DNA from: Klebsiella phage RCIP0009 | Length of the DNA stretch: 64,000 nucleotides | Strand: one strand, 5' to 3' | Sequence record: OR532803.1 | Part shown: positions 298 through 1,968 of the stretch, piece after piece | Position numbering within the stretch: the first letter of the stretch is position 1 | Layout of the letters: every line of letters begins with the position of its first letter | Notes under the pieces: model-generated | Told to the model about the DNA's origin: nothing | Seen by the model: only the letters and a program-made list of their open reading frames with translations | The model's database searches: none | Translations under genes and position numbers: made by a program

Positions 298-1435
298 AAT
301 TATCAATACCCTTTACAAACAACTCATGCAGTTGTGTGGTGAATCCGAAACATTTTTCTTCGTTGATCAAGTAACCGTGATGGGTACACCTGTTCGAATC
401 TTTAACTATCGCATGGCCTCATATACAGACTGGCTAAAGCCTGGTGCTCTGGAATGTCGCGGTATCATGTTTGAAATGGATGGAGATACCCCCGTATCAA
501 TCATCAGCCGCCCTATGGAGAAGTTTTTTAACTATGCCGAGGTAAAGGCATGGGAAGCGCTTAACGAGTCTCCTATTGAATTAGGCGAAGTTTTAGACGT
601 GATGATTAAAGAAGATGGTTCCTTGATCTCAACTTTCCTTGACGGTGGATTTCTGGCGGTCAAGTCTAAAGGTTCGGTTAAATCAGAACAAGCTATGGAT
701 GCGCACAGCGTGTTAATGGCAAATCGTGAATTGCTGACCCGCTTAACTGAGATCGCTAAAGAAAACTATACGGTGAACATGGAATACGTTTCCCCGAAAA
801 ACCGTATTGTCGTTGGTTATGATTCTCCTGATCTGCGTATCCTGAACGTTCGTCACAACATCACGGGTGAATACATCCCTTATGATGAACTCTTTGCTGA
901 CGCGCTGTTACGTGCGTATCTGGTTAAGCGTGAGAATATCGAAGTACTGGATCTGGATGCATTTGCAAAAGAAGCATATCAGAATGAAGGATTCGAAGGC
1001 TATGTTGTTCTGACAACGAAAGGGTTTGTAAAAATCAAAACGAACTGGTATGTCAACCTGCATCGCACAAAAGATAGCATTACCAACAATAAGGATCTTT
1101 TCCTAAATATTGTTGAGAATACGGTCGATGACCTGAAACAGCTATTCAGTTCGGATCTGGTCTCTCTGAAAAAGATTGACGATTTCGAAAAACTTTTCCT
1201 TGATAGTCTCAATCGTTTGAGTGCAAAAGCGTTCAAAGCCATTGAAGATAATAAAGGGAAATCGCGTAAAGATTTTGCTATCAGTCTAAGCGCGGATTTG
1301 TCAAACGACGGTCGGATCATCTTCGGGCCTCTTATGAAGTACTTCGAAGAAACCGATCCACAAAAACTGGTCGATCGCATCATTGAAATGATGGTTAAAA
1401 ATTACGATCAGTTCATTCCTGGAGAGTACAAGTGA
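278..1435 (+). CDS. rnlA: RNA ligase 1
   Basis: 385 aa. Long collinear similarity to T4 Rnl1 (gp63), e.g. ALECRGIMFEMDG, SRPMEKFFN, KEDGSL(I/V)ST, SKGS(V/I)KSEQA. Confidence 0.9.
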   Translation: MTKAQTKIINTLYKQLMQLCGESETFFFVDQVTVMGTPVRIFNYRMASYTDWLKPGALECRGIMFEMDGDTPVSIISRPMEKFFNYAEVKAWEALNESPIELGEVLDVMIKEDGSLISTFLDGGFLAVKSKGSVKSEQAMDAHSVLMANRELLTRLTEIAKENYTVNMEYVSPKNRIVVGYDSPDLRILNVRHNITGEYIPYDELFADALLRAYLVKRENIEVLDLDAFAKEAYQNEGFEGYVVLTTKGFVKIKTNWYVNLHRTKDSITNNKDLFLNIVENTVDDLKQLFSSDLVSLKKIDDFEKLFLDSLNRLSAKAFKAIEDNKGKSRKDFAISLSADLSNDGRIIFGPLMKYFEETDPQKLVDRIIEMMVKNYDQFIPGEYK

Positions 1436-1968
1436 AATCATTTGGCGCATATAGCCGAACGATAGAACAAGAAAAAGCAGGGATTGATTCCCTGCTTTCT
1501 TTCGTTGATGTTTTCCCCGAAACTGGAAAAATTTACTGGAATGATAAAGCATATCATAAAAGTAAGAGAGGAAAAGAAGCGGGTTCTATTGTTTGTGAAG
1601 AATACCCTTATACGAAAATAAAGTATGCTGGGAAAAATTACATGAGGCATAGAATAATATTTTACTATGTTCATGGTTACTTACCAATCATAGTTGATCA
1701 TAAAAATGGTCTTGATTTTGGTGATTGTATTGATAATCTTCAAGAATCCGATCCCGTTCATAATATATTGAAGAAAAACAAAACCAGAAAATCTAAAACT
1801 ACCACATCAAAAGGGGTTGACTATCGTTCTTCTCGTGGAAAATATAGAGCACAAATACGGATTAATGGTAAAACGAAACATATAGGATATTATGATACAG
1901 AAGAACAGGCGTCTATCGCATATGAGGAAACTTTGAATGAATATCAAAAGCATCTTGGGTATGATTAA
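1432..1968 (+). CDS. HNH homing endonuclease with C-terminal AP2-like DNA-binding domain (copy 1 of 3)
   Basis: HRIIFYYVHGYLPIIVDHKNGLDFGDCIDNL (HNH), then SKGVDYRSSRGKYRAQIRINGKTKHIGYYDTEEQASIAY (AP2-type). Its GTG start overlaps the rnlA stop codon (GTGA). Paralogous to 9373..9891 and 41850..42372. Confidence 0.75.
   Translation: MKSFGAYSRTIEQEKAGIDSLLSFVDVFPETGKIYWNDKAYHKSKRGKEAGSIVCEEYPYTKIKYAGKNYMRHRIIFYYVHGYLPIIVDHKNGLDFGDCIDNLQESDPVHNILKKNKTRKSKTTTSKGVDYRSSRGKYRAQIRINGKTKHIGYYDTEEQASIAYEETLNEYQKHLGYD

Follow-up and report, generated by a model that had tools for sequence, protein, structure and literature searches.

The window analysed here, a stretch of 64,000 nucleotides (nt) from Klebsiella phage RCIP0009 (sequence record OR532803.1), carries three genes that are very probably free-standing HNH-AP2 homing endonuclease genes. 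As judged from the sequences, they are old paralogues with separate targets, each residing in a cassette that has probably been spread by homing. In sequence, the window matches T4-like Klebsiella phages of the genus Slopekvirus, family Straboviridae (KP15, KP27, Miro, Matisse and about 110 further records), at 94-99.5% identity. All three open reading frames (ORFs) listed in an initial annotation are present and intact, and only the upper boundary of the third had to be moved, from 42372 to 42374 (its ATG occupies 42374..42372). The genes are:

1432..1968, plus strand: copy 1, putative HNH-AP2 homing endonuclease gene of 178 amino acids, GTG start, GTGA overlap with the rnlA stop codon
9373..9891, plus strand: copy 2, putative HNH-AP2 homing endonuclease gene of 172 amino acids, ATG start, ATGA overlap with the gp30.3 stop codon
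41850..42374, minus strand: copy 3, putative HNH-AP2 homing endonuclease gene of 174 amino acids (525 nt), ATG start, TAATG overlap with the stop codon of the upstream gene

Alignment of the three proteins spans their entire length, with 41-49% amino acid identity and 59 invariant columns, which include M1-K2-S3, RHR, GYLP, D-H, N-L-Q and a second N; their DNA aligns only in short patches of 68-77%. A tblastn search of the window returns exactly these three copies and nothing further above noise. The architecture that had been proposed for them, an HNH core with a C-terminal AP2 domain, is borne out by Pfam, by PHROG 99, by profile matches to PDB sequences and by Foldseek. Pfam finds both HNH_3 (PF13392) and AP2 (PF00847) in all three copies, with E-values of 4e-5, 7e-6 and 2e-4 for HNH_3 and of 3e-8, 5e-7 and 9e-5 for AP2 in copies 1, 2 and 3, respectively. 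The corresponding bit scores are 23.5, 26.1 and 21.5 for HNH_3, where only copy 2 exceeds the gathering score (26.1 vs 24.8), and 34.2, 30.5 and 23.2 for AP2, where only copy 1 does so (34.2 vs 33.3). PHROG 99, 'HNH endonuclease', is matched with E-values of 1e-44 (copy 1), 2e-57 (copy 2) and 3e-54 (copy 3). A nine-member family profile compared with PDB sequences matches the plant AP2 protein WRI1 (7wq5) at 1e-11 and the endonuclease I-HmuI (1u3e) at 3e-6, and the same profile reaches ERF096, TEM1 and AtERF1 at 2e-4 to 7e-3. The I-HmuI match covers positions 47-109 with D-H, N and N in register. All the motif roles sought are present, namely the D-H general base, the structural N and the metal-binding N: residues D89-H90, N102 and N111 (copy 1 numbering) are invariant in the three copies and the nine family members and align with the DH...N...N of I-HmuI.

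The structural comparison is in line with these matches. In an AlphaFold model of copy 3 with a mean predicted local distance difference test score (pLDDT) of 80.6, the AP2 part is formed by strands 123-126, 131-138 and 141-148 and a helix at 151-169, with pLDDT 82-91 over these blocks. The top Foldseek matches of this model are the plant AP2 structure 7et5, with a root-mean-square deviation (rmsd) of 1.0 Å over 55 columns and a probability of 1.00, and I-HmuI, with a probability of 0.97 over 163 columns. Plant AP2/ERF domains (AtERF1 1gcc, TEM1 7et5, WRI1 7wq5) have the same fold of three strands and a helix as the C-terminal 55-60 residues of the phage proteins (rmsd 1.0-1.7 Å, 29-38% identity), but no nuclease domain accompanies it in the plant proteins, which are transcription factors. 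With I-HmuI from Bacillus phage SPO1 the phage proteins share the HNH_3 core and the preceding beta-strand region. I-HmuI is intron-encoded, and its C-terminal DNA-binding part is a helix-turn-helix, unlike the AP2 domain found here.

Each copy lies at a gene boundary between two complete genes, and the continuity of these neighbours is kept in empty and occupied alleles alike; there is no intron or intein setting. The free-standing, intergenic placement recognized in the initial annotation is therefore correct, and reading the sequence at each junction confirms that the starts overlap the upstream stops, as GTGA at 1432-1435, as ATGA at 9373-9376 and, on the minus strand, as TAATG at 42376-42372. 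The GTG start of copy 1 holds as well. It yields the MKS N-terminus common to all three proteins, it is preceded by a good Shine-Dalgarno sequence, GGAG, 7 bases upstream, and it is the start annotated in phage Miro, where the ribosome-binding site is placed at 1421-1424. No promoter-like site was seen directly upstream of any of the three copies. Because of the stop/start overlaps and the absence of promoter-like sites just upstream, translational coupling of the copies to the upstream genes is plausible. The GC content of the three genes is 33.5-37.7%, compared to 41% for the window. The names that had been given to the neighbours mostly hold. RnlA, RNA ligase 1 (PF09511 and PF20819), and PIN-PhoH are confirmed; the gene upstream of copy 2, called a NADAR gene in the initial annotation, matches Pfam Phage_30_3 (PF08010), the T4 gp30.3 family. 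Upstream of copy 3 lies a gene for a 152-amino-acid protein of PHROG 2586.

The distribution of the genes among related phages is patchy. Occupancy was counted in the GenBank phage collection, in which about 106-112 Slopekvirus-type records match the flanks. Copy 1 is present in 23 records and copy 2 in 20, in every case with at least 99% identity. Copy 3 is present in 85 records, 62 from Slopekvirus (at least 99% identical) and 23 of the RB16/RB43 type (Pseudotevenvirus-type) from Cronobacter, Enterobacter, Citrobacter and Klebsiella phages (about 94.5%). Within Slopekvirus, the identity of each gene stays at 99% or above even beside DNA that matches at about 75-85% only. Site 3 is empty in about 44 Slopekvirus-type records, and most relatives are without copies 1 and 2. 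Of the 128 records, nearly all have intact ORFs. Since the sites are empty in many close relatives, the loci are not universally occupied, and the homing-endonuclease reading is supported. Scans of IMG/VR with RnlA, gp30.3 and the 152-amino-acid protein returned two Slopekvirus contigs only (KP15 and 3300045988_041714, 98-99% identical).

Empty alleles were read in KP27 (site 1), PMBT1 (site 2) and Tauntaun_ER47 (site 3). Alignment with them bounds three cassettes, each of which reaches beyond the endonuclease gene into a recoded end of a neighbouring gene:

about 1422..2011, plus strand: putative mobile cassette 1, from the alignment with empty KP27
1421..1435, plus strand: recoded rnlA end, GGA GAG TAC AAG TGA vs GAA CAA TAT AAA TGA in KP27 (5 of 15 nt differ)
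1961..2011, plus strand: recoded first 17 codons of the i-spanin gene (pseT.3 homologue), the right end of cassette 1; 19 of 51 nt and 7 of 17 amino acids differ from KP27
about 9298..9891, plus strand: putative mobile cassette 2, from the alignment with empty PMBT1
9298..9376, plus strand: recoded last codons (about 26) of gp30.3 (PF08010), the left end of cassette 2; 23 of 81 nt and 7 of 27 amino acids differ from PMBT1
9882..9903, plus strand: right copy of an imperfect direct repeat (about 20 nt) of the gp30.3 3' end, GGTTAAATGAGATCTGTTATGA, read from alignments; the left copy is at 9357..9376
about 42374..41799, minus strand: putative mobile cassette 3, from the alignment with empty Tauntaun_ER47
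41799..41840, minus strand: recoded first 14 PIN-PhoH codons, the right end of cassette 3; 10 of 36 nt and 1 of 12 amino acids differ from Tauntaun_ER47, and one codon is added

At site 1 the window is perfectly identical to KP27 up to 1421 and nearly identical again from 2012. In the comparison with Miro there are 0 differences over 1409-2034 and 18-43 per 100 nt over 2035-2700, in the spanin genes. It is the recoding of the four last sense codons of rnlA that gives copy 1 its GTG start and its GGAG ribosome-binding site. At the other end, the i-spanin gene starts (ATG at 1961) before copy 1 has ended. At site 2 the recoding affects the left side, and the right flank is unaltered compared to PMBT1. 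The empty-allele sequence of gp30.3 is conserved in KP15 and in RB43/RB16-like contigs. The window differs from ALF_ER54 by at most 1 nt per 100 over 9248-9973, but by 8-25 per 100 nt over 8800-9247, to the left in gp30.3. The direct repeat of about 20 nt brackets copy 2: a TTATGA context is kept both for copy 2 and for the downstream gene (ATG at 9900).

At site 3 the copy replaces a 55-nt intergenic region that separates the gene for the 152-amino-acid protein from phoH in the empty Tauntaun_ER47 allele. The first 42 nt of phoH are identical in the occupied alleles of Slopekvirus and Pseudotevenvirus, and the genus-type sequence resumes immediately after them. Empty phoH alleles of both genera share a different, conserved start, and cross-genus identity of the first 14 codons is found only in occupied alleles. 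When the window is compared with Cronobacter phage Cronuts, the synonymous divergence (dS) of copy 3 is 0.21 and its ratio of nonsynonymous to synonymous divergence (dN/dS) is 0.09, while dS of the adjacent phoH is 1.47, which is seven-fold higher. The copy 3 protein is under purifying selection. Identical cassettes in backgrounds that diverge at the cassette edges point to endonuclease-driven gene conversion with short co-conversion tracts, and the arrangement seen in the alignments is the footprint to be expected from such a process.

Further observations concern the sequences at sites 1 and 3. Near the 3' end of copy 1 (1946-1960), the 12-mer ATCTTGGGTATG matches i-spanin codons 5-9 of empty KP27, with a chance probability of about 0.003 by a rough hand estimate. 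It has the appearance of a leftover from the original target, situated to the left of the recoded spanin start. The 55-nt region of the empty site 3 (Tauntaun_ER47 L072:1629-1685) contains a GC-rich inverted repeat, TACGCGG...CCGCGTA, that is conserved in empty Slopekvirus and RB16-like alleles and is deleted wherever copy 3 is present. KP27 has at site 3 (L071:41193-41717, window 41829-42863) another HNH-AP2 paralogue, 53% identical to copy 3 and located directly after the endolysin gene. The gene for the 152-amino-acid protein is missing there, and phoH is of the RB16 type (71% amino acid identity in the N-terminal 120 residues), yet it starts with the recoded 30-mer of cassette 3, GTATTAGACACCAATGTTTTGATTAGTAAC.

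A mechanism that would fit the cassettes can be outlined as follows. Since none of the copies has a promoter-like site to itself, transcription probably runs in from the upstream gene, and ribosomes that reinitiate where stop and start overlap probably provide a low level of translation. During co-infection the enzyme would attack an empty allele, nicking or cutting it where the neighbouring gene has its conserved end. For copy 1 the candidate targets are the 3' end of rnlA and the 5' end of i-spanin; for copy 2 the candidate is the 3' end of gp30.3, and for copy 3 it is the 5' end of phoH. Inspection by eye of the three empty-site sequences revealed no motif common to them. Recombinational repair from the occupied genome would then copy in the endonuclease gene together with the short recoded gene end. 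This recoded end would leave the neighbouring protein largely unchanged (1/12, 7/17 and 7/27 amino acids differ at phoH, i-spanin and gp30.3, respectively) and would shield the carrier from self-cleavage. The recoded gene ends are most likely cleavage-immune versions of the target. The life style of the T4 Mob and Seg elements, to which the initial annotation had compared the genes, consists of an intergenic gene, cleavage of a neighbouring conserved gene, co-conversion of the flanks and protection of the carrier by nearby differences. The pattern seen here in the sequences fits this life style, although Mob (HNH) and Seg (GIY-YIG) proteins such as SegF, SegG and MobE belong to different protein families. 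To our knowledge, an AP2 domain has not been reported in T4 Mob or Seg proteins. The survey of T4-related genomes likewise separates 'mob-like HNH' from 'HNH-AP2' genes (Petrov et al., 2010; PMC2993671 Table 5), and we do not assign the three genes to the Mob family.

Several points weigh against this reading. Four of the six Pfam domain matches, including both matches of copy 3, stay under the gathering score, and the Foldseek E-values are weak (7e-3 to 2e-2), though the probabilities are 0.94-1.0. Copies 2 and 3 are preceded by weak Shine-Dalgarno-like sequences only. The recoded flanks could be merely sequence of the donor lineage carried along by co-conversion, rather than selected immunity; the recoded tracts of copies 1 and 2 hold seven amino acid changes each, which is compatible with immunity or with hitch-hiking. 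Enzymes of the I-HmuI type are nickases, and double-strand cleavage is for this reason not assured. Our literature search found no biochemical or genetic test of cleavage, target or homing for the Slopekvirus lineage.

Three other explanations have to be weighed against homing. The genes might have been domesticated, the nuclease excluding markers of co-infecting phages or the AP2 domain regulating neighbouring genes, with presence and absence reflecting ordinary recombination. The strong purifying selection on copy 3 (dN/dS 0.09), its retention in most of two genera and the role of AP2 as the DNA-binding domain of transcription factors all fit such a role, and it has been speculated that Slopekvirus endonucleases affect DNA modification or host range (bioRxiv 10.1101/2022.04.06.486684). 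We nevertheless regard domestication as unlikely. An identical cassette in backgrounds that differ sharply at its edges is a signature of gene conversion and not of neutral recombination, and the catalytic HNH residues are kept. Moreover, marker exclusion is itself the homing mechanism, and this explanation differs from ours mainly in the beneficiary. It is less probable still that the genes are inactive relics of past invasions, with ORFs that are intact only through the young age of the insertions. The Pfam matches under the gathering score would agree with decay, and split ORFs do occur in the records of CPRSA and CPRSB. In CPRSA (OM971648.1) two ORFs stand in place of one for copy 1 and likewise for rnlA and pseT, and CPRSB is also split here. 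Many genes of this region are broken up in CPRSA, and the record is 198.6 kb long; errors of assembly or sequencing are therefore a likelier cause than true pseudogenes. Inactivity is also difficult to reconcile with catalytic-motif residues that are invariant across paralogues of 41-49% identity, with the low dN/dS between genus-level alleles of copy 3 and with ORFs intact in nearly all records. The claim of the initial annotation that three copies of one family imply recent intragenomic homing has practically nothing left to stand on: common domain architecture, similar lengths, the MKS N-terminus and a location of all three within 41 kb speak for it, but protein identity is low, the DNA is barely alignable, the flanking targets are unrelated, each copy has same-site orthologues of at least 99% identity in other phages, and RB16 and RB43 carry their own sets of diverged paralogues (PMC2993671 Table 5). 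Because of this low mutual identity, the unrelated sites and the near-identical orthologues elsewhere, the copies are, on the evidence of the alignments, separate old lineages that have spread between genomes and were not made within this one. They are as diverged from one another as from the paralogues of RB16 and RB43.

A fourth position for a member of the same family is unoccupied in the window:

10383..10420, plus strand: unoccupied site for a fourth HNH-AP2 paralogue, consisting of a TTGA stop/start overlap and the first gp30.2 codons

The gene gp30.2 encodes a putative HAD-type phosphatase, as judged by its DIDG motif, and is annotated as 'phosphatase' in KLB21 and as '5'-3' deoxyribonucleotidase' in vB_Rp_M26a. 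In KP13MC5-1 (L004:2584-3096) and ALF_ER54 (L090:2484-2996) the site is occupied by an HNH-AP2 gene of about 510 nt. The inserted gene takes over the TTG start of the TTGA overlap, and gp30.2 gains a new ATG and four codons. The occupied site further shows seven changes, all of them synonymous, in the gp30.2 codons KPVILTDIDGIA over the region of the DIDG motif. Elsewhere, the IMG/VR contig 3300045988_041714, the nearest relative of the window among metagenomic sequences, holds a further HNH-AP2 paralogue at about 10937-11452, 47-53% identical to the three copies and about 72 kb upstream of the equivalent of the window start; the source genome probably carries at least four family members.

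Two of the copies contain a hairpin in their 5' part:

1474..1498, plus strand: 10-bp hairpin in copy 1, AAAGCAGGGA-TTGAT-TCCCTGCTTT, a terminator-like match with z -3.3 vs synonymous recodings
42311..42338, minus strand: 10-bp hairpin in copy 3, a terminator-like match with z -0.6 vs synonymous recoding (not significant)

The hairpin of copy 1 is called a 'terminator' in the Miro annotation, and the hairpin in the Pseudotevenvirus allele of copy 3 is significant (z -3.8). In copies 1 and 3 the hairpins are set back about 40 nt from the 5' end and cover nearly the same codons (E-x-x-G-I-x-S-L-L), with different sequences. A hairpin at codons 13-22 or so was considered as a conserved element of the family and rejected, as it is significant in 3 of 9 paralogues only (copy 1, the Pseudotevenvirus copy 3 and the KP27 paralogue). 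Judged by stability relative to synonymous recodings, it is absent from copy 2 and from four other paralogues.

These details invite a bolder version of the homing model, which we put forward only tentatively and consider somewhat doubtful. The insertions might be self-contained modules of endonuclease plus immunity, in which the recoded gene end would be the selected determinant, lying for instance over PIN active-site codons in phoH and over the DIDG motif in gp30.2. The stop/start overlap would have been captured for translation, the 5' hairpin of some copies would attenuate expression, and copy 3 would now be crossing from one genus to the other, between Slopekvirus and Pseudotevenvirus.

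Two further observations may be added. The gene that ends at 297, upstream of rnlA, is named 'endonuclease II (DenA)' in KP27 vs 'homing endonuclease, contains GIY-YIG domain' in Miro. The segment 45702-46258 (557 nt), with small hypothetical genes on the minus strand, is absent from KP27, and its genes show no tblastn similarity to the three HNH-AP2 proteins.

The class to which the three genes belong is already known, and in this respect the feature is ordinary. Many Slopekvirus records already list these ORFs as homing or HNH endonucleases. CPT_Miro70 of Miro corresponds to copy 1, with 100% identity (query 1436-1960), the same GTG start and the description 'homing endonuclease, contains AP2/ERF domain'. 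Later phage papers cite Magnani et al. (2004, Plant Cell) for the description of HNH-AP2 endonuclease genes, and Nolan et al. (2006; PMC1524935) recorded such genes in RB49 and RB43. They form a class of their own in T4-related phages, with three members in RB43, six in RB16, one in RB49 and two in JSE (Petrov et al., 2010; PMC2993671 Table 5); tblastn finds six places in RB16, in agreement with this table. Three of the six endonucleases of Miro and two of the five of Matisse are HNH-AP2 proteins (PMC4591322, PMC4591321). All these T4-related genes (RB49, RB43, RB16, JSE and, from Slopekvirus, Miro, Matisse and KP27_165) have the same N-terminal HNH_3 and C-terminal AP2 domains in about 170-180 amino acids, are likewise free-standing and are variably present among close relatives, and we see no essential difference from the genes studied here. 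The IPA-HNH genes of Vibrio phage ICP1 also combine HNH with a C-terminal AP2 domain and lie where tracts exchanged between related phages begin or end (Barth et al., 2023; PMC10448857). Their HNH domains were reported to be too divergent for Pfam HNH_3 (PMC10448857), whereas the three proteins of the window match HNH_3 directly. The family is large, with tblastn matches in 1586 phage records and as many as six places in a single genome. A word-indexed protein search with copy 3 gave 5 matches only, and a search with a four-member family alignment gave 15 loci, mostly known already.

Within Slopekvirus, endonucleases have been shown to be accessory genes to which the genus owes a large part of its diversity (bioRxiv 10.1101/2022.04.06.486684), and a 539-bp insertion difference between Kpn35c1 and Rpl1 has been assigned to a putative homing endonuclease (PMC9960720), with coordinates that match site 3. 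What is added here are the base-level bounds of four cassettes, the recoded flanks, the candidate targets and the cross-genus identity of copy 3; we did not find the cassette bounds, the flanks or the identity of copy 3 spelled out in the literature. The current picture of homing endonucleases is not altered by these data, and their practical value is modest. No characterisation of HNH-AP2 specificity was found in the literature, and plant AP2 transcription factors have been proposed to descend from this class. The mapped edges provide three candidate target sequences for a biochemical test, and a fourth at 10383-10420. Among therapeutic Klebsiella phages that are otherwise nearly identical, much of the small-scale variation is due to these genes, which also mark the boundaries of recombination.

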